From assembly GCA_964347335.1 (NCBI GenBank), contig CAYFYO010000001.1, positions 2,090 to 66,089 of the forward strand: 64,000 nucleotides of DNA, in the 5' to 3' direction. This document shows positions 10,032 through 55,616 of the stretch, in pieces. Within the stretch, counting starts at the first letter, position 1, and every line of letters begins with the position of its first letter. The DNA comes from an uncultured Thermodesulfobacteriota bacterium. Its GTDB lineage: Bacteria > Desulfobacterota > BSN033 > WVXP01. The position numbers were made by a program, and so were the translations under genes. The notes below the pieces were generated by a model that saw nothing but the letters and a program-made list of their open reading frames with translations, was not told the origin of the DNA and did no database searches.

Positions 10032-11951
10032 TCAGCGCCTTTCCACTCTCACACCTTGGCCGTAAAAGGCAATCCCATCGGGGCGATCCGTGAATCTTCC
10101 CTCGACTAGCCGGTTGCTGCCCCAACCGTACTTCAACCATGGCCCGCGGCCCACGATGACCGCCGAGGGATGGAGTCCCTTTTCGGCTTTGAGTTGAACC
10201 GGCATCTCCCCAAGGGGCGAGATGATGACTCCCAGCTCTCCCGCCTTAAGTCCCAAATTCCGAAGTGTTGATGGGGCCAAGAAAGCCTCGGGTGTCAGGG
10301 ATTCATGCTCTTCGGGCAGGATCTGGGAGTGGATGAATTCCTTTCTAATGAGCGTCAAAAAGGTCAGTGGATAGTCCGGATCGACCGATTCATCTGGTGA
10401 AATCTCTGTCAAAAAACGAAATCTTCCGTCTCTGTGGTCGAAACGCCCTCCCTCGAAGGCAACGGTGGGACGGTCCGCCTGTGCGGTCCCGTGCTTTCGG
10501 AGTCCTTCGAGGGTAGTATCGAGAAAAGCGCTTTCCAGGCTTCGACGGAGATAGCTCTCCCGTTCCTCGAGATCGATCGGTGGTTTCAGCCGACGTCCGA
10601 TTTCCGCGACGATCTCGAAGTCGCTTTTTGCACCCTCCGGTGGGGGAACGACAGCCCCAGAATAGTTCACGAAGTGGTGGCCCCATGATCCGACGACGTC
10701 TTCCTCCTCGAACATCATCGTGCAGGGCAGAACGAGATCGGCAGCCTCTGCCGTATCCGTCATGAAGGGATCGGCGACGGCAACGAAGGGTGTCTTTTTC
10801 AAGGCCTGTAAAAGGACCGAGGATTCCGGTGTCTGATTGACAGGATTCCACATGGAAATCCAGACCATGTGAATCGGGGGATCCGATGCCTCAAGAATCG
10901 ATCGGCCAATATGAGCAACTGGAACGGTCCTCGTGTACCTCTCCTCTCCCACCCACTCGAGGTTGAGGTTTTGTCGGGAGGAGACGCTATAGTAGGCTCC
11001 GCCTCCTTGGCGCCCGATGTTCCCGGTAATGAAGGCTAACGCGTTGATGGTTCGGACGCTTTCTGCCCCGTGAGGATACCGCTGTAAGCCGTTACTCAGG
11101 ATGGTGGCACAGGGATGGTGCTGATGGTAGAACTCCGCAAGAGCCTCAATATCCCGGATGGAAGCATCGCAGCTTTGGGAGAGGTCAGCGAGGGAATACC
11201 TGTCGAGAAGGACGGTGAATTGATCGAGGTTGTAGGCCTTCTCTTCAATTCGGGGAGAAATCCCATGCCCTTTGACGGTCTCCTTCGCGGCGGCGATAGC
11301 CAAAAATCGGTCCGTGCCCGGGCGAATGCGAATTGTGCGGTCTGCGAATCCTCTATTCTCCTCTGCTCGAGGGGAGATGGAGATGACGGCTGTTCCGCGT
11401 CTTCTAGCCTGAGCCACGAGCCCCCCCGTATGGACCGAGCTGACCCCGAGCTTTTTGCCCCAGACCACAATTCCTTTGGCGTTCAGCAGATCTTTGGGAT
11501 CATTCATTCGTAGGGCGTCAAAATCCTCTATGCAGGCTTCTATGCCAGTGCTATCGCAGACTCCTTCAGGAAGGATCCGGCTTGCGCCAAGGTTAGCAAA
11601 GAAGGCATCCTCGACGAGCTTACTGACCCCCTTGGCGGCTCCTCCTCTGAGATGAAGGATCGAGCCGGGTTCTCGGCGTAACGTGTCAATCCTTTCGGCA
11701 CAGAGGGAAAGCGCCTCATCCCAAGAGATCTCTCGCCACCGTTCCCCCTTTCTGAGGAGAGGCCTTTTGAGCCGACTCGGGGAGGTGAGCCTTTTGGGGA
11801 GCCGTTGGATCTTTCCACAGCAGTAGCCGCTCGTATAGGGATGATCGGGGTTTCCCCGTATCCTGGTGATTCTATCGTTCTCTTTTTCGACCAGCACGGA
11901 GCAGGCATCGGGGCAGTCGAGTGTGCAGGCGGATAGGTAGGTTTCTCTCAT
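10032..11951 (-). CDS. molybdopterin-dependent oxidoreductase (MopB superfamily), cytoplasmic, substrate unknown
   Basis: An N-terminal Cys cluster (CTLDCPDAC...C) typical of the Fe4S4 domain of bis-MGD enzymes is followed by molybdopterin-binding domains. There is no Tat signal. A GTG start at 11966 is also possible. Confidence 0.8.
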   Translation of the reverse strand: MRETYLSACTLDCPDACSVLVEKENDRITRIRGNPDHPYTSGYCCGKIQRLPKRLTSPSRLKRPLLRKGERWREISWDEALSLCAERIDTLRREPGSILHLRGGAAKGVSKLVEDAFFANLGASRILPEGVCDSTGIEACIEDFDALRMNDPKDLLNAKGIVVWGKKLGVSSVHTGGLVAQARRRGTAVISISPRAEENRGFADRTIRIRPGTDRFLAIAAAKETVKGHGISPRIEEKAYNLDQFTVLLDRYSLADLSQSCDASIRDIEALAEFYHQHHPCATILSNGLQRYPHGAESVRTINALAFITGNIGRQGGGAYYSVSSRQNLNLEWVGEERYTRTVPVAHIGRSILEASDPPIHMVWISMWNPVNQTPESSVLLQALKKTPFVAVADPFMTDTAEAADLVLPCTMMFEEEDVVGSWGHHFVNYSGAVVPPPEGAKSDFEIVAEIGRRLKPPIDLEERESYLRRSLESAFLDTTLEGLRKHGTAQADRPTVAFEGGRFDHRDGRFRFLTEISPDESVDPDYPLTFLTLIRKEFIHSQILPEEHESLTPEAFLAPSTLRNLGLKAGELGVIISPLGEMPVQLKAEKGLHPSAVIVGRGPWLKYGWGSNRLVEGRFTDRPDGIAFYGQGVRVERR

Positions 11952-12282
11952 ATGGACTCTTCTCACGGATGTGTCTCAAGAGTGCTCTTGCTTTTTCAGA
12001 AGATTTTTTGTTAAATCTAACCTTGCTTATTTCGTCCTTTCAATACTGTGGGTTCGTGCTCGTGTAGCCCACCAGTTTATGACACGAAGGGAAGTGTTTT
12101 TGCCGAGTTCGGATCACAACCTTTCGGCCGATAACGGCGCCCCCGCCCCATTCACGCGGCCCGGTTATTCCCGCAGCGGCATTATATCAGCTAGAAGATG
12201 GTTTTAAAATGAGCAATTCTCGTTTCGATCCATCCTGGTGGGGGTAGCCCTTCGGTGATAACAGTCGGGGAGTAGAGTCGTT

Positions 12283-15200
12283 TTGAAAAAAAGGTCTTCC
12301 GCGCTTCTTCTCATCGGCTTCGTGGTGGTCGTGATTTTGGGAATCGGTGTGGCCTACGTCCGTTTCTACCTCGGAGCCAGGTTGGCCGAGGAGGCACTCA
12401 AAACGGCGATTCAGTCGGGTCTCGGTGGGAGGGCGACCATTTCGCGGACCGTGATTCATTGGTTGGGTCGTCCTGGAATTGAGTACCGAGGGCTCTCCAT
12501 TCGGGGTGACGACGAGGAGGCCGGCTGGCTCACGGTTAAACGGATGATCGTTAGACCCGAGCTCGGGAGTATCTTTTCAAAATCCATCGAGTGGAAAAGC
12601 CTCGAACTTGAGGGCCTGGTGGGACGGTTTACCGGAGGGGTGGGGTCGTTTCCCATGGAGTACCTGGTTTCGATGCTTCCGAGGGTCGATTGGTTCGAGG
12701 TCAGAGGGGGGACGCTTGCATGGGGTGAGAGGGAAATCCGAGACCTCTTTGTCTCTCTTGGCAATCTCTCAACGGCGGGACCATTTCCGGTGGTGCTGAA
12801 GGGAGCCCTGAAGACGAAAAAGGGTCCTCCCGCGAGGGTTTCGGTTCATGGACTGGCTCATGGATCCTCTGAGGAATGGGCCCCGTGGGACCTCAAACTC
12901 TCGGCCAAAGTCAAGGCAAAAGGTCTCGATCCGACGTGGCTCGGTGACCTATTGGCCCGATCCATTCCATCACAACTCGCTGGCAGCAGCCTGACGATCG
13001 CGGCGGCATTTGAAGGATACCTGAGAGGTCGGTTTCACTCATCGGGGAGGGTGACCATCGCGGGTGTTCGTTTCTTGGAGGGAATGGACAGGGTGAATGT
13101 CGATTTTGCGTTCAGCTGGGATGGCCAAAAACTGGAGTTCCAGAGGATTCGCCTCCAGACCCCGTCCATGCCTCTGGAGGGACGGGGCGTCATTCGTGGG
13201 AGACGGGGAGACGATCCGGTGATCTCTTTTCGAGTTGACTGCCCATGGGTATCGATCAGAGGACAGAAAAGCGTGTTTCCCTTTCTTCCTGAGAAGGTCC
13301 GTTCCTTCTTGAAATCCATCAACCAGGGAGAAATCACCCTCATGTCAATGGGCTTCACGGGCCCTCTGAAGAGCTTCGGATTTCCTCAAGACGAAGAGTC
13401 GCTTCTCCGATGGGGGGGGAAGATCGGTTTCAGGAATGTGGTTTTTCCATGGAGGGGGGAGACCCTTGAATTAAGAAGGGGTTTACTGAATATAGACCAA
13501 GGCCGTCTTGGGGGGGAAGCCCTCGGTCTGCGTCTCGGCGATTCAGAGTTGGAGATTTCTCCCTTAACGCTCGCGCGACCTTTCGGCGATCAGTCGATCG
13601 AAATGACCCTGAAGGGCGAAGTGAACCTCCCGGACATTTCAAAATGGATTTCCACGGGCTTCATTCCGGAAAAATTGGCGCTTCCCCTTTCGGAGATTGA
13701 GGTTCAGTCGGGCACGGGGGAGGTTGATATTCGATTTGAGAAACGGCGTGGACTTCCGATCTCGTCTGCCCTCACTGGGAGTATGTTCCTTAGGGATGCG
13801 GCCATCCGAATCCACCACATTCCCGGGACTTTTGAGAAAATGAATGGGCTGGTAGAGCTATTCTCCACGGGCATTTCAGTTCGTGACGTTCAGGGCAGGT
13901 GGCGGAATTCGACCGTGAGGGCGAATGGCTCGGTGGCTATCCGTTCTTCAGATCATTCAGAGATTGACTTTTTGATGGAAGGCCGACTCGACCTGAGAAA
14001 CCTTCGTGAAATTGAGTCATGGAGGTTGCTGCCTGTTGATATACGTAAGGTTCTCCAGGAGGTCAACTCCCCCGCAGGGAGCGGAGACTATGTTGTGGCG
14101 GTAAAAGGCCGAGTCGGGTCGGGTGATGACATTGAAGTCAGTGGAGAGCTATCGGTGAGGAAAGGGTCCTTTCGACTTTGGGACGCCTACCCTGTGGAAC
14201 GGGTTGACGGCCAGATTTTCTTCTCGAGAGAGAGGATTTCGATCCCTCATTTGCAGGGAAACTGGAAGAATTCGGATCTGGCGTTGCGGGCAGCTTTGAC
14301 GCGGCCCGGGGCGAAGTTCTTCAGGGACTTACGCTTCTCGGGGGTCTTCGATCTTCGAGACATCGCAGCAGAGCGTTTCGAGCGCGGGTCTCCAAGGACG
14401 TGGAGAAAATTCCTCAAACCTTTCGAGTTCTATCGCGGAAAGGCGCTTGTTGAGGTGAACAACCAGAAGCGCCATGACGGGGCCTCCGTCGATGGCCACA
14501 TCACCTTTAAGGAGGCCGAGGTTCGTCATGTGCCTGTTTTCCCTCCCCTCACCGACGTCGAGGGGAGGGTCTCCTTTCACGGAAAGGGTATTGAGACTGT
14601 CGATGTTGAGGGAAAGTTCGATTCGAGTCTCATTCGGATTCGGGGCGATCTGGCTCCGGCGTCCGGAGATTCCCAGCCTTTCCTCTCCATTCAGGCGGAG
14701 CGCGTCGACTTTGAGAAGGTGATGTCCTGGCCTTGGACAAGCGGTTATTCCTTCGGCCGGAAGAGTCGACCCCCGCTGGCGGTTCGGGTTCGGGTCGACA
14801 ATGGGGGCTTCAGGGAGATTCCGTTCTCTGATGTCCAGGCGAGACTAAAGTTAAAGGGTGATCGGATCTCTTTTGAGGAAGTGACTTTCATCTCAACCCA
14901 GGGTCAGGGTTTAATCAGGGGATGGCTCGGTCTTGGGAATGACGGTAAAGTATCCTTCGAATTTCGACCGTATTTTCTCAAGGTCGAGACAAATCCGATT
15001 GTGAGAAGCTTTCAAAGTGGAGAGGGCGAGCAAGAGTTAAGCGGGTTATGTTCTGCCCTTGGCGTCATACGGGGAGGTGGGAACAAGGCTGAGGAGATTG
15101 TCCGATCCCTGAATGGAGAGATTGGTATCTTTCTGGAGGGGGGAAGGATCGGACAATTCGGCGTCTTGGCACAGGTATTCTCCCTTCTCAACCCCTCTCA

Positions 15201-15663
15201 GCGTGATGGGGACGATTCTCCAGATCCAAAGACAGGGGGATTGACTTATGGGACCATTATGGGAAAGGTCACCCTCAGGGAAGGTCGGGCCTCGACCAGC
15301 GATCTTTTACTCGACAGTGATTCCATAAGAATTTCGGCAGTGGGAGACTTTGAGATCCCCTCCGGCGGTCTGGATCTGCGGCTTGGACTTCGCCGAGTCG
15401 GTGCTCGGGGGAAGGTCATCAGAACAGTTCCTGTCTTTGGAAAAATTGTGACCACCGATCGGGGGAGTTTCATCCATTACTACCTCGAGGTGAAAGGCAC
15501 GATCGCTGAGCCAGAAGTGAAAGGGATTCCGTATCTGTCGCTTTCTGACGGCGTTTCTGGACTCATACACGAGCTGCTAGAGACGCCGAGAAAGGTGGTT
15601 CCCTTTCAAAGACAGCCGGATTTAGAAGAATATTTCGACCAGAGAAAGCATCCCCACCCCTAG
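12283..15663 (+). CDS. AsmA/TamB-like large envelope protein (N-terminal TM anchor, 1126 aa)
   Basis: A single N-terminal TM helix (LLLIGFVVVVILGIGVAYV) is followed by a long beta-rich, Gly/Arg-rich region characteristic of the AsmA family. Confidence 0.65.
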   Translation: MKKRSSALLLIGFVVVVILGIGVAYVRFYLGARLAEEALKTAIQSGLGGRATISRTVIHWLGRPGIEYRGLSIRGDDEEAGWLTVKRMIVRPELGSIFSKSIEWKSLELEGLVGRFTGGVGSFPMEYLVSMLPRVDWFEVRGGTLAWGEREIRDLFVSLGNLSTAGPFPVVLKGALKTKKGPPARVSVHGLAHGSSEEWAPWDLKLSAKVKAKGLDPTWLGDLLARSIPSQLAGSSLTIAAAFEGYLRGRFHSSGRVTIAGVRFLEGMDRVNVDFAFSWDGQKLEFQRIRLQTPSMPLEGRGVIRGRRGDDPVISFRVDCPWVSIRGQKSVFPFLPEKVRSFLKSINQGEITLMSMGFTGPLKSFGFPQDEESLLRWGGKIGFRNVVFPWRGETLELRRGLLNIDQGRLGGEALGLRLGDSELEISPLTLARPFGDQSIEMTLKGEVNLPDISKWISTGFIPEKLALPLSEIEVQSGTGEVDIRFEKRRGLPISSALTGSMFLRDAAIRIHHIPGTFEKMNGLVELFSTGISVRDVQGRWRNSTVRANGSVAIRSSDHSEIDFLMEGRLDLRNLREIESWRLLPVDIRKVLQEVNSPAGSGDYVVAVKGRVGSGDDIEVSGELSVRKGSFRLWDAYPVERVDGQIFFSRERISIPHLQGNWKNSDLALRAALTRPGAKFFRDLRFSGVFDLRDIAAERFERGSPRTWRKFLKPFEFYRGKALVEVNNQKRHDGASVDGHITFKEAEVRHVPVFPPLTDVEGRVSFHGKGIETVDVEGKFDSSLIRIRGDLAPASGDSQPFLSIQAERVDFEKVMSWPWTSGYSFGRKSRPPLAVRVRVDNGGFREIPFSDVQARLKLKGDRISFEEVTFISTQGQGLIRGWLGLGNDGKVSFEFRPYFLKVETNPIVRSFQSGEGEQELSGLCSALGVIRGGGNKAEEIVRSLNGEIGIFLEGGRIGQFGVLAQVFSLLNPSQRDGDDSPDPKTGGLTYGTIMGKVTLREGRASTSDLLLDSDSIRISAVGDFEIPSGGLDLRLGLRRVGARGKVIRTVPVFGKIVTTDRGSFIHYYLEVKGTIAEPEVKGIPYLSLSDGVSGLIHELLETPRKVVPFQRQPDLEEYFDQRKHPHP

Positions 15664-33585: not shown

Positions 33586-33608
33586 ATAATCCGATTCTAT
33601 GGTTTCCG

Positions 33609-33700
33609 CTTCCCTACGCTGGAATTACCCACACAGGTTCAAAGGGTCATCCCGTCCTCGCTGGGTCGGACGGAATTCTCAGCCCGTTGAGCTCCCCTAG
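33609..33700 (-). promoter_or_regulatory. TPP (THI-box) riboswitch
   Basis: The minus strand reads GGGGAGCUCAACGGGCUGAGA...GACCCUUUGAACCUGUGUGGGUAAUUCCAGCGUAGGGAAG. The conserved CUGAGA, ACCCUUUGAACCUG, UAAU.CCAGCG and AGGGA elements are present in the canonical order. Confidence 0.75.
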
Positions 33701-33712
33701 CGAATCTCTCCT

Positions 33713-38479: not shown

Positions 38480-39124
38480 TTAGCCTATTGTAATTCTGAC
38501 GCTCTTTGAATTGTAACACCCTTTTAGGGTCGATACCATCGCCCGAACCGTTCTCAACAGGAGTGTTTTGATGAAGGGGGTCATCGGAATTGGCCTTCCA
38601 TCGACAACGAGAGCGATATCCTCCGCTTTCTCAGACTGGAGAAAATTCTTCTCGATCAGATCCGTAACCCCCTTTCCATCATCCAGATCAAAGCAGGGGA
38701 CGGAAAGATCAAATCTCTTATTCGCAACGACAGCCACAAGTTGATCGTCTTTGCCGCAGAGGAGCTCCCGATGCTTCTCCTTTCTGAAGACCTCAATCTT
38801 TGGCTGCACATCTCTCACAAACCCCTCTGAGATCATGATATCGACGTCGTCACCAAAGCGGTCTCTGAGTTCCGCAAGCGTCTGGTCACGGTCCACACGC
38901 TTTATCAGGGCCATTTGAGTGGGAGATGAAAGGATGACCGCATCCGCCCCGGCCCTCCGGTGGCGCCAGCTGTCCTTGCCCTCTTTGTCTATCTCAAAGC
39001 CGTGAACGTCGTGTTTGATTGTGGCGACCCGATACCCCCGCCGAACGAGTTCAGGGACAATTTTCTCAATCAATGTCGTCTTGCCGCTGTCTGATTTACC
39101 GACAATGGAGACTATAGGAATCAT
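38480..39124 (-). CDS. mobB: molybdopterin-guanine dinucleotide biosynthesis adapter MobB with C-terminal extension
   Basis: The N-terminus IVSIVGKSDSGKTTLIEKIVPEL carries Walker A and ATIKH follows. Confidence 0.75.
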   Translation of the reverse strand: MIPIVSIVGKSDSGKTTLIEKIVPELVRRGYRVATIKHDVHGFEIDKEGKDSWRHRRAGADAVILSSPTQMALIKRVDRDQTLAELRDRFGDDVDIMISEGFVRDVQPKIEVFRKEKHRELLCGKDDQLVAVVANKRFDLSVPCFDLDDGKGVTDLIEKNFLQSEKAEDIALVVDGRPIPMTPFIKTLLLRTVRAMVSTLKGCYNSKSVRITIG

Positions 39125-39191
39125 CGTTGTAAACCTCTTTGAGGGATCGCTTCGACTCCAGATTTGGCTGAACGGATATTCAACGTGTGAT

Positions 39192-40439
39192 CTACAGGTC
39201 CAGGTCAATCAGCCTGACGTTGACTTCCTCACCCTTACCGACTGCGGTGCTACTCTCGGGCACCACGATGACACCGTTCGCCTGAACTGTTGGCATGAGC
39301 GAGCCTCGGTGTTGTCTGTTGATGGGAATGGCCTTAAGTCTCCCATCCCGGAGGACGACCTTGGCAAGAACGAATTTACGCAGTCCTTTCTTTGTGCGAA
39401 TCGTTCCCTCCAGTATCATCTTCATCGTCGGGCTTGACGGATCCTGACGTCCCCCTTTTCCGCTCATTTTCAACAGAGCAGGCCTGACCAACTCCTCGAA
39501 AGCCACGATACAAGCCGTTGGGCTTCCCGGAAGGCTGAAGACAGGCTTTCCCTTCAACAAACCGAAAACAAATGATTTGCCGGGGCTCATGGCGACCCCG
39601 TCCACTCGGGTTTGGATTCTCATTTGGCGATACACCTGCCGGACCCAGTCTGAGTCTCCGTGCCGCGTACCTCCAATCGTGATGATCGCGTCAGCAGCGA
39701 GACCGGATCGAATCTGTTTTCTGATATAGGCAGCTTCGTCTCCGACAACCCCGAGGGAGAACGGGGCGCAACCAGATTCTTGGAGTTTGGCGAGAAGAAA
39801 ATAGAGCGAGCTTGCAAAGATCTTTCCTGGCACGAGAGGCTCCTCGAGTCCGAGGAGTTCACTTCCGGTGGAAAGAACCGCGACTGCGGGTTGTCGGAAC
39901 ACCTCAACCTCCCGAATGCCCAGTGAGGCCAGCATTCCAATACTCCGAGGACTCAGAGTGGTACCCTTTTTTAGGACGAGGTCCCCCCTGCAAACATATT
40001 CCCCCGTAGATGCGACATTCTCCATTGGAATGATCGGTTTTTTAATTTCAATCTGGGGGGTTGGGGTTTTTGGAAAGGAGGTGTCCTCCTCCTTGACAAC
40101 TGCATCTGTCCCGGGTGGAATGGGCGCGCCGGTCATGACGCGAATCGCCATGCCGGGTCTCACACGTTGCGTGGCCACAGACCCGGCGGGGATCGTTTCG
40201 ATCACCCGAAAAAGTGAGCCTTTGGGTATGGGGACTCGTCCTTCATTTTGGCACGAGATGGCGAAACCGTCTACCGTTGCGTAGCTGAATGGAGGCAAAT
40301 CCATCGGAGCGAGGACGTCGTCAGCCAGATTGCGGTTCAATCCCTGAACAAGCGGTAAAGTTTCAGTCCCCGTAGCGCTTACGGATTCAATAATGCGATC
40401 GACAGTCTCTTCGACTGACAGTGATCTCTTTCTCTGCAT
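39192..40439 (-). CDS. moeA: molybdopterin molybdotransferase MoeA
   Basis: Four-domain MoeA layout with the GGVSMG-like region (ITIGGTRHGDSD) and an MoCF_biosynth domain. Confidence 0.85.
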   Translation of the reverse strand: MQRKRSLSVEETVDRIIESVSATGTETLPLVQGLNRNLADDVLAPMDLPPFSYATVDGFAISCQNEGRVPIPKGSLFRVIETIPAGSVATQRVRPGMAIRVMTGAPIPPGTDAVVKEEDTSFPKTPTPQIEIKKPIIPMENVASTGEYVCRGDLVLKKGTTLSPRSIGMLASLGIREVEVFRQPAVAVLSTGSELLGLEEPLVPGKIFASSLYFLLAKLQESGCAPFSLGVVGDEAAYIRKQIRSGLAADAIITIGGTRHGDSDWVRQVYRQMRIQTRVDGVAMSPGKSFVFGLLKGKPVFSLPGSPTACIVAFEELVRPALLKMSGKGGRQDPSSPTMKMILEGTIRTKKGLRKFVLAKVVLRDGRLKAIPINRQHRGSLMPTVQANGVIVVPESSTAVGKGEEVNVRLIDLDL

Positions 40440-40677
40440 GTTTCGAACGACGATCGGGAGGGTCGCTGAGAAACTCTGTTTTTCCTGACCCTATTTTAAG
40501 CAAAATCAGGCGATGAAGCAAATGGAGGAAAGAGAAAAAGAAAACCTCGGTCTTTCGGGGACCGGGGCTTTCATTTTGGCAGCCCATTGATGAGTGCCCG
40601 AGTTGTCTCAGCCGATTCTGGGCCGATGCTCGTTGATAATCGCCAGGGGCCAAGCTATAATGGGGTGGAGGCCCTCC

Positions 40678-41688
40678 ATGAAGGAAGCGAAATTCTACGA
40701 AAAACGCGAAGGAAAAGCCGTTAAGTGTCATCTCTGCTTCCACGAGTGTCTCATCAAAGATGGGCGCCGTGGCGTTTGTGGGGTTCGAGAGAATTGCGAG
40801 GGAACCCTCTTCAGCCTCGTGTACGGAAAGTCGATCTCCGAAGCCGTAGATCCCATAGAGAAGAAACCCCTTTTTCATTTCCTGCCGGGTACAACTATAT
40901 TCAGCATTGCTACGGTGGGATGCAATTTCAAGTGTCTCCACTGCCAAAACTACAGTATCTCACAGCCACCGGGCGATATGGGCGGGATTCCGGGTGAAGA
41001 CTTACCACCAGAGAGAATCGTCTCTCTGGCTCAGCAGACCGGATGTCGAAGCATCGCTTATACCTATACGGAGCCGACGATTTTCCTCGAATATGCCATG
41101 GATACGGCCAAGCTTGCTAGCCTGGGAGGCCTCAAGAACGTTTTTGTGACGAATGGATACATTACACCCGACGCCCTCCGCGCTGTGAGTCCCTATCTGG
41201 ACGGGGCGAACATCGATCTTAAATCCTTCAGCGAAGATTTCTACCGGAAGGTCTGCGGTGCCAGGCTTCAGCCTGTCCTTGAATCGATCAGGCTTTATAG
41301 GGAGCTGAATATCTGGATTGAAATCACGACGCTCGTGATTCCTCGTTATAATGATTCAGAGGAGGAGCTCCGTAAAATCGCCCGTTTCATTGCTGCTACA
41401 GATCGAAACATCCCTTGGCATGTGACACAATTCTATCCGACCCATCGCCTTCAGGATCGGCCGAGAACCCCCCTGAAAGTCCTGGAGCGAGCCAGGCAGA
41501 TTGGGATGGAGGAAGGGCTGAAATACGTCTATCAGGGGAACGTTCCAGGAGCTGGTGGTGAGAACACGTACTGTCCTGGCTGCGGCAAGCTCCTGATTGA
41601 GAGACACGGCTACACCAACCGAAGCTACGCCATTATGGGAGGGAACTGTCCGGCCTGTGGAGAAGCAATCAGTGGGGTCGGCCTGTGA
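40678..41688 (+). CDS. AmmeMemoRadiSam-system-type radical SAM enzyme
   Basis: An N-terminal Cys pair (CHLCFHEC...C) is followed by a CNFKCLHCQN radical SAM motif and a GGEP-like motif, the architecture of the TIGR04337-like family. The start has a GGAGG SD. Confidence 0.7.
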   Translation: MKEAKFYEKREGKAVKCHLCFHECLIKDGRRGVCGVRENCEGTLFSLVYGKSISEAVDPIEKKPLFHFLPGTTIFSIATVGCNFKCLHCQNYSISQPPGDMGGIPGEDLPPERIVSLAQQTGCRSIAYTYTEPTIFLEYAMDTAKLASLGGLKNVFVTNGYITPDALRAVSPYLDGANIDLKSFSEDFYRKVCGARLQPVLESIRLYRELNIWIEITTLVIPRYNDSEEELRKIARFIAATDRNIPWHVTQFYPTHRLQDRPRTPLKVLERARQIGMEEGLKYVYQGNVPGAGGENTYCPGCGKLLIERHGYTNRSYAIMGGNCPACGEAISGVGL

Positions 41689-42830
41689 CAGCCCCATTTC
41701 CCCAAGAGAATCAGGACCTCAAACAGATCATCCTCAACCGAATCCATCGAGAAGGCAAAATCCCCTTTTCAGAATTCATGGAACACTGTCTCTACCATCC
41801 TGGTCATGGCTATTATATGACCGAGGGAGAAAAGATTGGGAAGAAGGGGGACTATTACACAAGCCCGAGTGTCCATCCGGTCTTTGGCCGTCTCCTCGCG
41901 CGACAACTCGGGGAAATGGGTGACCTCTTACAAGACGGGACCTTTTGGATCGTTGAGGCGGGAGCCGGAAGGGGCATGCTGGCCAGGGATATCCTCGATT
42001 TCGTGGCCCAGGAGTTTCCAGTCTTTTTCGCACGGTTGAAGTATGGTGTCGTTGAGACCGGCCCCCGTTTCGTCAAAGAGCAGGAAGTGAGGCTGGCGCC
42101 TTACGTCGGGAAAGTGGAGTGGCTAAATCTCCAAGAGGTTCGGGAAGCCAGTCTCCAGGGTTGTTTTCTCGCCAACGAGTTTTTCGATGCCTTTCCCGTC
42201 CACCGGGTAGTGCTTCAGAATGGAGCCCTAGAGGAGATCTATGTGACCGAGGAGGATGGGAGGTTCTGTGAAGTTTTGGGAGAACTCACCTCGGAGGAGA
42301 TCCCTCGTTACCTTGATGACCTGGACATTCGGCTCGGAGAGGGGGAGCAGGCTGAGGTTAACTTGAAGGCTCTCGACTGGTATGACCAGGTCGGGAGGGT
42401 ATTGAACCGCGGGTTCCTCATGACGATTGACTATGGTTATCTGGCACAGGATCTCAATGCCTCCCAGCGGCGGTCAGGGACCCTATTATGCTATTACCGG
42501 CACACGTGCTCGGACAATCCATACGGCCACATCGGTCTCCAAGACCTGACGACCCACGTGAACTTCAGCGGTCTCATCAGAAAAGGAGAAACCCTCGGAT
42601 TCTCACTGACGGGGTTTGTCCGTCAATACCGGTTTCTTTTGTCCCTCGGTTTCCTCGATGAGATTCAGAGATTGAGAGGAAGGGCTCAATCCGGTGAAGC
42701 TGCGCTCAGAGAGAGCCTAAAGATGAAACATCTCGTCCTTCCCGATGGCGGCATGGGTGAGACCTTCAAGGTCTTGATTCAGCATAGGGGAGTCGACGAT
42801 GTCCAACTCCGTGGTCTTTGCCCGCTATGA
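41685..42830 (+). CDS. MidA/NDUFAF7-like class I SAM-dependent methyltransferase (DUF185)
   Basis: The N-terminal HPGHGYY and Rossmann motif VEAGAGRG are characteristic of the DUF185/MidA family. The gene overlaps the radical SAM gene by 4 nt. Confidence 0.7.
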   Translation: MTAPFPQENQDLKQIILNRIHREGKIPFSEFMEHCLYHPGHGYYMTEGEKIGKKGDYYTSPSVHPVFGRLLARQLGEMGDLLQDGTFWIVEAGAGRGMLARDILDFVAQEFPVFFARLKYGVVETGPRFVKEQEVRLAPYVGKVEWLNLQEVREASLQGCFLANEFFDAFPVHRVVLQNGALEEIYVTEEDGRFCEVLGELTSEEIPRYLDDLDIRLGEGEQAEVNLKALDWYDQVGRVLNRGFLMTIDYGYLAQDLNASQRRSGTLLCYYRHTCSDNPYGHIGLQDLTTHVNFSGLIRKGETLGFSLTGFVRQYRFLLSLGFLDEIQRLRGRAQSGEAALRESLKMKHLVLPDGGMGETFKVLIQHRGVDDVQLRGLCPL

Positions 42831-42931
42831 AGTTTTGCAGGTCTCTGAGAAAGGGAGCCGTTCGCTGGTCGGAAGGCTTTTCGGGGAATGCCAAGCGAAC
42901 CTCAAATGGCGTCCGGTGCGGGTGTGCTCGC

Positions 42932-44134
42932 TTATGCCTTTCCGAGTTTCTTCTTCAACTCTTCAGTCAGTTTGGGAAGGACCTGGAAGAGATCCCCGAC
43001 AATGCCGAACGTGGCGATTTTGAATATGGGGGCTTCTGGGTCTTTGTTAATTGCGACGATAATATCAGACGTCTTCATGCCGGCCTGATGTTGAATGGCT
43101 CCGCTGATCCCGCAGGCGAAATAGATTTTTGGACGGACCGTCTTGCCGGTTTGCCCCACTTGATGCTCATAGGGGATCCATCCGGAGTCTACTGCGGCCC
43201 TGGAGGCTCCAACAGCGGCTCCGATTGCATCGGCAAATTCACGAACCACCTTGAATTGGTCAGACCCTCCCAGACCTCGTCCTCCAGATACAATGATCTC
43301 CGCGTCCATCAGGTTGATTGTTTCTGCTCCCTTTACGAACTCCAATACTCTCGTGTGCACCTGTTCTTCGGTCATGTCCAAGGATTCTTTGATGATCTCG
43401 CCCTTTCTCGATTTGTCTTTTGAGGGCATGGGAAAGACTTTGGGGCGAACAGTAGCCATTTGCGGCCGATGGCGCTCGCAGAGGATCGTTGCCATAATGT
43501 TCCCGCCAAAGGCGGGTCTGGTCTGTTTCAGGAGTTTCTTCTCAGCGTCAATATCGAGGCCCGTGCAGTCAGCCGTTAACCCAGTCTCCAGGGTTGTCGC
43601 GACACACCCAGCAAAGTCACGGCCCTGCGTCGTGGCTCCGTAGAGCACCACCTCGGGCTTGTACTTCTGGATCAGGCTGACGGCCGCTGCTGCATAGGGT
43701 TCCGTTCGGTAGTCTCCCAAAATGGGACTTTCAGTGAGGTAGACTTTTTCAGCGCCATAGGCGATTGCCTCCTCGGCAAACGCCTCGGCTTGATTCCCGA
43801 TGAGCATACCACAGAGGCTGCATCCGAGGCTATCGGCGAGCTTTCTGCCCTCACCGAGGAGCTCAAAAGAGACATTGGCCGCTTTCCCTCTCTCATGCTC
43901 GATAAAAACCCAGACGTTCTTGTACTCCCGTAAGTCCACCTCGGCCTTTTTTTCTTCCTTCTCGAGGGTGATGGCATCTACGGGGCAGACGTCCTCGACA
44001 CAGGCTCCGCAAAACGTGCATTTTTCGTTCACAACGGCAACGTCATCTTCCATGGATAGGGCGTCGTAAGGGCAAACCTCGACGCAAGCACCACATCCCG
44101 TGCAACTCTCTTTGTCGATGATCAGCTTCGGCAT
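42932..44134 (-). CDS. etfA: electron transfer flavoprotein alpha subunit with N-terminal 2x[4Fe-4S] ferredoxin domain (FixB-type)
   Basis: Two CxxCxxCxxxCP motifs at the N-terminus, then EtfA FAD-binding domains. Confidence 0.85.
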   Translation of the reverse strand: MPKLIIDKESCTGCGACVEVCPYDALSMEDDVAVVNEKCTFCGACVEDVCPVDAITLEKEEKKAEVDLREYKNVWVFIEHERGKAANVSFELLGEGRKLADSLGCSLCGMLIGNQAEAFAEEAIAYGAEKVYLTESPILGDYRTEPYAAAAVSLIQKYKPEVVLYGATTQGRDFAGCVATTLETGLTADCTGLDIDAEKKLLKQTRPAFGGNIMATILCERHRPQMATVRPKVFPMPSKDKSRKGEIIKESLDMTEEQVHTRVLEFVKGAETINLMDAEIIVSGGRGLGGSDQFKVVREFADAIGAAVGASRAAVDSGWIPYEHQVGQTGKTVRPKIYFACGISGAIQHQAGMKTSDIIVAINKDPEAPIFKIATFGIVGDLFQVLPKLTEELKKKLGKA

Positions 44135-54284: not shown

Positions 54285-55616
54285 ATGACAAAAAGCGACC
54301 AGATCTGTTTAATCAGCCTCGGTTGCGCGAAGAATCTGGTAGACTCCGAAGTGATGCTGGGCCTACTGGCTGAAGAGGGTTACACCATCACAACGGAACC
54401 GGCTGATGCTGATGTCATTCTGATCAACACGTGTAGCTTTATCCGTGATGCAACTCAGGAGGCTCTGGACACGATTCATGGAGCGGTCGAGCTTAAGAAA
54501 TCTGGATCGTGTCACCGGGTCGTTGTGACCGGTTGTCTTCCTCAGCGATACGGTTCTGTCCTCGCGAAGGAGATCCCTGAGGTCGACTTTTTCCTGGGGA
54601 CTGAGGAGTTCCCTCACATTATGCGTTATCTTGAGGGGGCCGTTGATCACCAGGAGCGAGTGGTTATCACGAGGACTCGTTTTCTTTACGATCACCAAAC
54701 CCCACGCCTGCTTTCGGGACATCACTGGAGTGCCTACATAAAAATCGCGGAGGGGTGCTTCAGGTCTTGCTCATTCTGCACCGTACCCAGGATTAGAGGC
54801 CGGTTTCGCAGCCGCCCGATCGACTCCATCTGTCGAGAGGCTCGTCGGCTGGTTGACCAAGGAGTCCGGGAGATCAATCTTGTTGCTCAGGACACAACAT
54901 CTTACGGCCTTGATCTCAAAGACGGGACCAATTTGAAGGCCCTCCTTGAGGGCCTCTGCCGGATTGAGGGCCTCGCCTGGATTCGTGTGCTGTATGCCTA
55001 TCCTGAGCATATCGATTTACAGCTCCTCGAGTGGATGGAGAATTCTGAGAAAATCTGTAACTATGTTGATCTGCCCATCCAACACATCAACTCGAGAATC
55101 CTCCGGGCCATGGGGCGTCCCGTCTCCCGCCGATCCTTGGAGGATTTGATTCGTAAGGTCAGGGAGACCATTCCCGGTGTCTCAATCCGAACCACCCTCA
55201 TGGTCGGATTCCCCGGAGAGACGGCAGCAGAGTTCTCCGAGCTGGTGGATTTTGTCGGAAGCGCTCGATTTGAGAGACTCGGAGTTTTCGAGTTCTCTCC
55301 AGAGGAAGGAACGCGAGCCGCGAGGATGAAAAAACAGGTGCCGGCGTGGGTCAAAAGAAAACGCCGTGAGCGACTCATGGGACTTCAGCAGGAGATCTCC
55401 TTGGAGCACAACGAGGAGCTGGTCGGGAAAAAAGTTCTCGTCTTGACCGAAGGACGGACGGAAGAGAAGGGCATGCTGAAGGGGCGCATGGCGACACAGG
55501 CACCGGACATCGATGGTCATGTCATCATTACCCAAGGAGATGCCTCCCCAGGGCAGATGGTGGATGTCCGTATCACCAAGGCTTATCCCTATGATCTGGA
55601 AGGAGGGATCGTCTGA
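54285..55616 (+). CDS. rimO: ribosomal protein S12 methylthiotransferase RimO (MiaB-family radical SAM)
   Basis: MTTase N-domain Cys (C..C..C), radical SAM CFRSCSFC and a C-terminal TRAM domain. Confidence 0.8.
   Translation: MTKSDQICLISLGCAKNLVDSEVMLGLLAEEGYTITTEPADADVILINTCSFIRDATQEALDTIHGAVELKKSGSCHRVVVTGCLPQRYGSVLAKEIPEVDFFLGTEEFPHIMRYLEGAVDHQERVVITRTRFLYDHQTPRLLSGHHWSAYIKIAEGCFRSCSFCTVPRIRGRFRSRPIDSICREARRLVDQGVREINLVAQDTTSYGLDLKDGTNLKALLEGLCRIEGLAWIRVLYAYPEHIDLQLLEWMENSEKICNYVDLPIQHINSRILRAMGRPVSRRSLEDLIRKVRETIPGVSIRTTLMVGFPGETAAEFSELVDFVGSARFERLGVFEFSPEEGTRAARMKKQVPAWVKRKRRERLMGLQQEISLEHNEELVGKKVLVLTEGRTEEKGMLKGRMATQAPDIDGHVIITQGDASPGQMVDVRITKAYPYDLEGGIV

Follow-up and report, generated by a model that had tools for sequence, protein, structure and literature searches.

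A radical SAM gene of the AmmeMemoRadiSam family overlapping a MidA-like methyltransferase gene in uncultured Thermodesulfobacteriota

In a contiguous stretch of 64 kb from an uncultured Thermodesulfobacteriota bacterium (hereafter the window, meaning the whole DNA analysed), the gene for a radical SAM enzyme (rSAM) overlaps that for a MidA-like methyltransferase, which raises the question of whether both enzymes belong to a common modification system or are neighbours by gene order only. The AmmeMemoRadiSam gene-neighbourhood association has been described by Balaji and Aravind (2007; PMC2034487), and the components of this system are the radical SAM enzyme (TIGR04337), an AMMECR1-like protein A (TIGR04335) and a Memo-like protein B (TIGR04336). 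NDUFAF7/MidA, on the other side, is the mitochondrial protein arginine methyltransferase acting on the complex I subunit NDUFS2 (Rhein et al., 2013; PMC3829151).

Identity of the two proteins and anatomy of the operon

The following features were assigned to the locus.

38480-39208, minus strand: mobB, context outside the unit (TIGR00176, 146 bits versus a cut-off of 76)
39192-40439, minus strand: moeA, divergent neighbour, context outside the unit (PF03453, PF00994, PF03454)
40633-40661, plus strand: sigma-70-type promoter of the two-gene operon, TTGATA-17-TATAAT, 11 of 12 consensus matches
40667-40671, plus strand: Shine-Dalgarno-like GGAGG, 6 nt 5' of the ATG at 40678, read from the sequence
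40678 (ATG) to 41686-41688 (TGA), plus strand: AmmeMemoRadiSam-family radical SAM enzyme, 336 aa (TIGR04337, PF04055)
40921-40944, plus strand: CX3CX2C motif CNFKCLHC, rSAM residues 82-89, with C82, C86 and C89 invariant in alignment A1
41685-41688, plus strand: GTGA, MidA start codon overlapping the rSAM stop codon (context cctGTGAcag)
41685 (GTG) to 42830, plus strand: MidA/NDUFAF7-like class I SAM-dependent methyltransferase, 381 aa (COG1565; PF02636, PDB matches)
41952-41975, plus strand: SAM-binding motif I (E/DxGxGxG) VEAGAGRG, MidA residues 90-97, with E91, G93, G95 and G97 invariant in alignment A2
42932-44134, minus strand: ferredoxin-fused etfA, convergent, bounding the operon (PF01012, PF00766, Fer4)

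The rSAM matches TIGR04337 with 366.6 bits (E=1e-109), clearly above the curated cut-off of 220, and PF04055 with 89 bits, thus corroborating the family assignment of the initial annotation. All runner-up families, in contrast, remain far under their cut-offs (YjjW activase 63.9 versus 250.2, PflA 47.2 versus 231.75, NrdG 36.7 versus 131.15 and MoaA 32.4 versus 284). The possibility of a glycyl-radical-enzyme or anaerobic RNR activase misassigned to this family, which the initial annotation had named as its own potential refutation, could draw on a shared radical SAM core and distant kinship to PflA, the nearest solved structure (PDB 3C8F, E=9.5e-6), as well as on the JGI label 'pyruvate formate lyase activating enzyme' attached to rSAM homologues. 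However, the activase models altogether reach only 30-64 bits versus cut-offs of 131-496, the window encodes no glycyl radical enzyme, and the protein differs from the activases by additional N- and C-terminal Cys sets (C17/C20/C24/C34 and C299/C302/C324/C327), likewise invariant in alignment A1. By these profile scores a PFL, NrdG or MoaA identity is ruled out and the activase reading is effectively refuted.

As judged from its sequence, the CX3CX2C motif is the predicted ligand of the radical SAM [4Fe-4S] cluster. Homologues at 56-69% identity are found in Nitrospirota, Bathyarchaeia and Thermodesulfobacteriota. Copies physically linked to the canonical partners are also close, with 57% identity to an rSAM adjoining a TIGR04336 Memo gene (L083), about 60% to two near TIGR04335 AMMECR1 genes (L024 and L037) and 51% to an rSAM-Memo fusion (P0316). 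The window rSAM is full-length and high-scoring, bears the same Cys motifs and shares 51-61% identity with such fused or adjacent copies. It is an orthologue of the Memo- or AMMECR1-linked enzymes that evolves slowly, not a diverged paralogue.

The second ORF matches PF02636 with 206 bits (E=8.6e-61, cut-off 23.3) over profile positions 1-248 of 249, the domain comprising residues 70-311, whereas none of the NCBIfam models matches. It aligns end to end with the bacterial COG1565/DUF185 structures 4F3N (3.8e-42) and 1ZKD (1.1e-30), in line with the proposed DUF185/MidA assignment, although similarity to the eukaryotic enzyme is only remote (5ZTZ, the Dictyostelium NDUFAF7 homologue, E=5.5e-16). 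Annotation of the window ORFs did not reveal a NuoD gene within the 64 kb.

The rSAM start was placed at ATG 40678 because it is preceded by GGAGG and homologues begin at MKEA; the alternative GTG at 40594 was rejected, as the conserved promoter and the Shine-Dalgarno sequence would then lie inside the extension. The promoter ends 16 nt from the ATG. Since GTG 41685 is the sole in-frame start before the conserved MidA N-terminus, stop and start codons overlap by 4 nt, exactly as initially annotated. An overlap of 4 nt is the commonest kind among co-directional bacterial genes and, therefore, represents on its own no more than chance would give. Upstream, the operon is separated by a 238-bp spacer from the divergent moeA and mobB genes, both indeed on the minus strand, and 101 bp lie between the MidA stop codon and etfA. 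A convincing terminator hairpin was not found in this gap, its fold being no better than that of shuffled sequences (z = +1.5).

Distribution of the gene pair

Uniqueness to this genome, the second refutation envisaged initially, does not apply, as the pair occurs in all 11 related loci, with identities of 62-71% for MidA and 78-88% for rSAM. Promoter sequence and position are kept in 10 out of 10 lineage loci examined (TTGATA in nine and TTGCTA in L092), as is the Shine-Dalgarno sequence, while the remainder of the spacer has diverged. Likewise, nine out of ten share the ctgTGA junction, L007 deviating, so that the GTGA overlap and a single promoter before rSAM, and with them the predicted co-transcription and translational coupling, are conserved within the lineage. 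Wherever a locus reaches far enough, the flanking order mobB-moeA <> rSAM-MidA <> etfA-etfB-ech-thiolase-surA-surA-mfd is also maintained, apart from a missing thiolase gene in L003. All 11 positive loci possess this flanking block, which includes unrelated genes and, where the loci are longest, runs collinearly over some 15 genes at most. As the flanking genes are collinear, too, the conserved adjacency within the lineage is not independent evidence of a link between the two enzymes.

For comparison outside the lineage, the nearest approximately 80 relatives of each gene were considered, giving 80 rSAM-centred and 74 MidA-centred loci (154 in total). None of the 80 rSAM loci (56-69% identity; at least 1.2 kb of downstream sequence in 68) and none of the 74 MidA loci (49-53% identity; at least 1 kb of upstream sequence in about 58) contains the pair. 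It was not seen either in P0082, P0181, P0237, P0336 and P0277, each looked up singly; hence, adjacency lacking common flanking synteny was not encountered in any of the 154 loci. MidA genes of sister lineages have conserved neighbours of their own, with an FMN-reductase-like gene downstream in 53 out of 74. The lineage MidA forms a single 50%-identity cluster among 1.84 billion representatives, the best match being at 70% and the next at 52% identity. Judged by these sequence comparisons, the pair appears to be restricted to one narrow lineage of uncultured 'Deltaproteobacteria'/Thermodesulfobacteriota.

An rSAM-MidA fusion was sought with a concatenated query of 717 aa in a set of 5.8 billion proteins, where none of the matches listed covered both halves; the only fusions met were with inteins, Memo, Methyltransf_11, Lon_C, HAD and PF02579. 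Similarly, no protein of fusion length is among the best 150 MidA matches (HMMER, 1.84 billion representatives). Thus, from the conservation across genomes envisaged in the initial annotation, the adjacency was recovered in the 11 lineage loci, but neither adjacency among the 80 and 74 loci outside nor a fusion could be added. A literature search found no paper linking AmmeMemoRadiSam or AMMECR1 to MidA/COG1565.

Canonical partners and other methyltransferases beside rSAM

In contrast to the AmmeMemoRadiSam system, the 64-kb window does not contain an A or B protein, as had been noted initially: a motif scan for AMMECR1 and Memo was empty, phmmer searches with verified TIGR04335 and TIGR04336 proteins gave E values of 0.33 or worse, and none turned up when the remaining ORFs of the window were annotated with Pfam. 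The downstream gene, in translational overlap with rSAM, codes for a methyltransferase of the MidA type, a configuration observed in the source lineage alone. However, the companionship with AMMECR1 and Memo expected initially is no rule of gene order among the relatives of this rSAM: of the 80 loci (56-69% identity), only three carry a partner gene within 7 kb (AMMECR1 in two and Memo in one). Consequently, the absence from the window is uninformative and no sign of replacement. Most rSAM genes in this branch of the family thus stand alone, away from their partners, and the 139 immediate neighbours of the related rSAMs match 180 different Pfam families.

Methyltransferases of other types are also found beside this rSAM. 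In four Syntrophobacteria-like loci (L053, L072, L081 and L085), a Methyltransf_11-type class I enzyme is encoded directly upstream, and in L169/P0258, having unrelated flanks, it shares one reading frame with rSAM. Methyltransferase identity goes down to about 37-43% here. As in the window, a class I SAM methyltransferase gene is thus co-directional with the same rSAM family and sometimes overlapping or fused, whereas the methyltransferase family, its upstream position and the lineage differ; a homologue of this partner is not encoded in the window. We know of no published description of this pairing. In L172, another, unrelated methyltransferase follows two genes after rSAM-Memo. The three rSAM-associated methyltransferases (MidA, the Methyltransf_11 type and that of L172) are unrelated beyond motif I. 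Elsewhere, the Methyltransf_11-type enzyme is more robustly paired with rSAM than is MidA.

With three of the 139 immediate rSAM neighbours (about 2%), the methyltransferases come close to the proportion that class I methyltransferases generally make up of a bacterial genome. An enrichment was accordingly rejected as not significant, all three belonging to one orthologous group and the L172 enzyme being unrelated.

Weighing of explanations and significance

A dedicated two-enzyme system for modifying a protein or cofactor, in which the methyltransferase replaces or supplements AMMECR1 and Memo in this lineage, would be in line with an operon whose promoter and GTGA overlap are kept over 10-11 loci despite MidA divergence to 62% identity, and with the window being devoid of both canonical partners. 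The pairing and fusion of rSAM with Methyltransf_11 in another lineage, independently and with different flanks in L169, as well as the methyltransferase in the rSAM-Memo cluster of L172, point in the same direction. Nevertheless, we consider such a new system rather unlikely: the pair is confined to one collinear lineage and is missing from all 80 and 74 loci elsewhere, no fusion with MidA was found, the rSAM is orthologous to the partner-linked copies and evolves slowly, methyltransferases are infrequent among its neighbours, and the three types are unrelated beyond motif I. Operon membership and the conserved translational overlap lend weak support to a functional link between rSAM and MidA.

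A role of the pair alongside the divergently transcribed moeA and mobB, such as a radical SAM or methylation step in the maturation of the molybdenum cofactor or of molybdoenzymes, could be suggested by the 238-bp spacer common to the pair and moeA, an arrangement kept in the lineage, and by a molybdopterin oxidoreductase elsewhere in the window (10032-11966). We regard this as highly improbable, however, as the rSAM possesses its own promoter, has a MoaA score far from the cut-off and does not have MoeA or MobB nearby in any of the 80 other loci, nor does MidA in its 74. The connection to molybdenum cofactor genes raised at the outset is thus not seen outside the lineage, and an association of the pair with moeA, mobB or etf was discarded, these genes being absent from all 154 loci.

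The probable explanation, in our view, is a lineage-specific two-gene operon with its own conserved promoter that joins two separately and widely conserved housekeeping enzymes. By family membership, the rSAM [4Fe-4S] cluster on C82/C86/C89 would cleave SAM to give a 5'-deoxyadenosyl radical, which would then abstract hydrogen from the substrate, and the enzyme most likely still acts together with homologues of AMMECR1 and Memo whose genes would lie elsewhere in the genome. For MidA, homology with NDUFAF7 makes methylation of a protein side chain most likely, the residue being arginine in the characterised eukaryotic member. Juxtaposition and GTGA overlap would then represent a derived arrangement that became fixed in a single narrow lineage, securing co-transcription and probably translational coupling but giving no indication of a shared pathway.

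Conservation of AMMECR1, Memo and the associated radical SAM enzyme reaches from archaea to humans (AMMECR1, MEMO1). To our knowledge, no substrate has been assigned to any of the three, nor to bacterial MidA/COG1565. A conserved rSAM-MidA operon would have hinted, in a testable way, at the function of both, but as the link is confined to the local gene order of a single lineage, it gives little leverage on function. A broader and quite unlikely idea is that the AmmeMemoRadiSam pathway includes a methylation step for which lineages recruited different methyltransferases (MidA, Methyltransf_11 and that of the L172 rSAM-Memo cluster); if true, the kinship of MidA to protein-arginine methyltransferases would suggest that the substrate of AmmeMemoRadiSam, a system with no assigned target since 2007, is a protein. 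Useful by-products of the analysis are that this rSAM usually stands apart from its partners and that a different methyltransferase is its more robust companion in other genomes.

Two overlapping genes of known families

The gene pair and its flanks in the window are arranged as follows.
38480-39208, minus strand, mobB, divergent from the pair, beyond moeA
39192-40439, minus strand, moeA, divergent, 238-bp spacer to rSAM
40633-40661, plus strand, sigma-70-like promoter TTGATA-17-TATAAT (11 of 12 matches)
40678-41688, plus strand, rSAM, radical SAM enzyme of 336 aa, ATG at 40678, TGA at 41686-41688
41685-42830, plus strand, MidA, methyltransferase of 381 aa, GTG start
42932-44134, minus strand, ferredoxin-fused etfA, convergent, 101 bp downstream of MidA

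In profile searches, rSAM matches TIGR04337 (AmmeMemoRadiSam system radical SAM enzyme) with 366.6 bits (E = 1e-109, cut-off 220), whereas the alternatives YjjW activase (63.9 bits, cut-off 250), PflA (47.2, cut-off 232), NrdG (36.7, cut-off 131) and MoaA (32.4, cut-off 284) stay far below their thresholds. The protein bears CNFKCLHC at residues 82-89 and two more invariant cysteine sets (C17/C20/C24/C34 and C299/C302/C324/C327); its sole solved relative by sequence is PflA (E about 1e-5). With 51-61% identity to copies fused or adjacent to Memo or AMMECR1 (loci L083, L024 and L037, protein P0316), rSAM is, on sequence grounds, an orthologue of these partner-linked copies and not a diverged paralogue. 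MidA scores 206 bits against PF02636 (Methyltransf_28) and can be aligned along its full length with the COG1565/DUF185 structures 4F3N (3.8e-42) and 1ZKD (1.1e-30), the Dictyostelium NDUFAF7 homologue 5ZTZ being more distant (5.5e-16); SAM motif I is intact (VEAGAGRG). Both family assignments of the initial annotation thus hold.

No in-frame start other than GTG 41685 precedes the conserved MidA N-terminus, so that the proposed 4-nt stop/start overlap of the two co-directional genes (GTGA) is real. Moreover, rSAM carries its own promoter, separate from moeA-mobB, with GGAGG downstream of it and 6 nt ahead of the ATG. The promoter sequence (cgTTGATAAtc...gcTATAATg) and its distance to the ATG are kept in ten related loci, with TTGCTA as first hexamer in L092, while other spacer sequence has diverged, supporting both the promoter and the start at 40678. 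As no plus-strand promoter-like site is found near the MidA start, a single transcript with coupled translation is most likely. Downstream of MidA, no convincing terminator was detected. The GTG-40594 extension of rSAM (40594-40677, plus strand) and the long reading frames antisense to rSAM (40387-40947, minus) and etfA (42818-43423, plus) are ORF-listing artefacts and do not represent genes.

Elsewhere in the window, the following features are encoded.
10032-11966, minus strand, molybdopterin oxidoreductase
12283-15663, plus strand, YhdP-like protein of 1126 aa
16159-17502, minus strand, second radical SAM protein, unclassified, 447 aa
30995-33587, minus strand, ABC transporter operon (ATPase, permease, NMT1/THI5-like binding protein), probably a thiamine-precursor importer
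33594-33708, minus strand, TPP riboswitch (RF00059, 69 bits), directly upstream of this operon
54285-55616, plus strand, MiaB/RimO-type methylthiotransferase (UPF0004, Radical_SAM, TRAM)

Surroundings of rSAM and the usual partners

AMMECR1 and Memo are absent from the 64-kb window, as initially noted: a motif scan was empty, phmmer searches using verified TIGR04335 and TIGR04336 proteins reached E = 0.33 at best, and Pfam annotation of the other ORFs revealed neither. However, the accompanying statement that this enzyme normally travels with both does not apply here. Among 80 loci from other species with rSAM at 56-69% identity (Nitrospirota, Bathyarchaeia, Geobacteraceae, other Thermodesulfobacteriota and others), only three have a partner within 7 kb, AMMECR1 in two (L024, L037) and Memo in one (L083). 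The 139 immediate neighbours match 180 distinct Pfam families, the most frequent, DUF2934, occurring in six, and individually inspected loci of Malonomonas rubra and of a Bathyarchaeote agree with partner-poor surroundings. Hence, the absence of adjoining partners is the norm among close relatives, and this part of the family does not show the "persistent gene-neighbourhood association" that was published for AMMECR1, this radical SAM enzyme and a ring-opening dioxygenase (PMC2034487).

At the loci of the closest homologues outside the lineage (L009 and L010, 69% identical), rSAM lies 13 nt downstream of a rubrerythrin/ferritin-like gene (L009:1122-1646, L010:6464-6988) and is followed by pheS, in place of moeA and MidA. 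Many homologues of 750-840 aa (P0248, P0257, P0267, P0290 and about 20 others) contain an intein (PF14528 and PF14890), and other fusions involve Memo (P0316), Lon_C/ChlI (P0256), HAD hydrolase (P0265) and NifX-like PF02579 (P0295, P0300).

Restriction of the adjacency to one lineage

The pair is not confined to one genome. It is present in 11 of 11 loci of a narrow lineage of uncultured Thermodesulfobacteriota (L001-L004, L007, L089-L094) with MidA at 62-71% and rSAM at 78-88% identity, the ctgTGA junction being identical in 9 of 10. Wherever a locus reaches far enough, the gene order is (GAF-HD, NMNAT-like, cinA, redoxin, DUF1684) mobB-moeA, divergent from rSAM-MidA, followed by convergent etfA-etfB-ech-thiolase-surA-surA-mfd, L003 lacking the thiolase. 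As this conservation is common to many unrelated genes, it tells little about the pair itself. Likewise, the divergent moeA-mobB, correctly described initially, is lineage synteny and not a recurrent partner, as none of the 154 loci from outside the lineage contains homologues of MoeA, MobB or Etf. One branch shows the only interruptions of the block that were observed: genes for a UbiX-like flavoprotein (PF02441) and for an LpdD-like chaperone (PF21758) lie between MidA and etfA (L001:9191-10143, L002:4802-5754), and beyond mobB, DUF1684 gives way to TRAP transporter genes.

Outside the lineage, a MidA homologue was found in none of the 80 rSAM-centred loci (68 with at least 1.2 kb downstream) and an rSAM homologue in none of 74 metagenome loci centred on MidA (49-53% identity; about 58 with at least 1 kb upstream); L005, L170 and L172 also lack the pair. 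MidA identity steps from 62% in loci with the pair to 53% in those without. When 1.84 billion representatives were scanned in full with HMMER, the lineage MidA formed one 50%-identity cluster (best match 70%, next 52%) out of 11,023 for the whole family. A query joining rSAM and MidA end to end, run against 5.8 billion proteins, gave, among the matches listed, none spanning both halves, and the best 150 MidA representatives include no protein of fusion length.

In the sister lineage, MidA lies in a different conserved setting, followed by an FMN-reductase-like gene in 53 of 74 loci and preceded by an LPG_synthase_C gene. The downstream FMN-reductase/flavodoxin_2-like product is Cys-rich (L095-L168, 49-53% MidA identity; L005:9324-9962), CMD, response-regulator and sigma-54 activator genes also precede MidA, and DJ-1 and rubrerythrin are close by, which looks like an oxidative-stress setting.

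Methyltransferase neighbours and meaning of the pair

The initial annotation suggested that rSAM and MidA form a dedicated protein or cofactor modification system. That the two genes share an operon and a conserved overlap speaks weakly for this, and the pairing of rSAM with other methyltransferases elsewhere leaves some further room for it. In four Syntrophobacteria-like genomes with shared upstream ilvD synteny (L053:6099-8014, L072:5866-8011, L081:6023-8011, L085:6096-8011), the gene immediately upstream of rSAM encodes a Methyltransf_11-type class I enzyme of about 270 aa. It has no specific NCBIfam model, the best match below cut-off being the DVU_1556 family. With methyltransferase identity down to about 37-43% (L081 versus L085, 43%), this pair is, to judge from its divergence, older and more robust than rSAM-MidA. 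In P0258 (L169:6830-8806, unrelated flanks), both share one reading frame; the Pro/Arg-rich linker resembles a translated spacer, and the fusion may be read-through. Locus L172 (6001-9403) encodes, co-directionally, rSAM (53% identical), Memo, an unknown protein of 119 aa and a third methyltransferase, also of class I, which beyond motif I bears no relation to the Methyltransf_11 group. However, methyltransferases make up 3 of the 139 immediate neighbours, about as common as class I methyltransferases are in bacterial genomes at large, and are thus a lead and not an enrichment. With the pair found, among the loci compared, in the lineage only and no fusion seen among the matches listed, a dedicated system appears improbable: the initial observation stands in every detail, families and anatomy included, while the system deduced from it is not supported.

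We rather regard the arrangement as, most likely, an operon particular to this lineage that joins two enzymes, each conserved separately. rSAM would perform SAM-derived radical chemistry on the family's substrate with AMMECR1 and Memo encoded elsewhere, and the MidA-like enzyme would methylate a protein, by analogy with NDUFAF7, which methylates Arg85 of NDUFS2 (PMC3829151). Each gene is an ordinary member of a known family that already carries an annotation, the homologues being labelled by NCBI "AmmeMemoRadiSam system radical SAM enzyme" and "SAM-dependent methyltransferase", and the arrangement of the two is local gene order.
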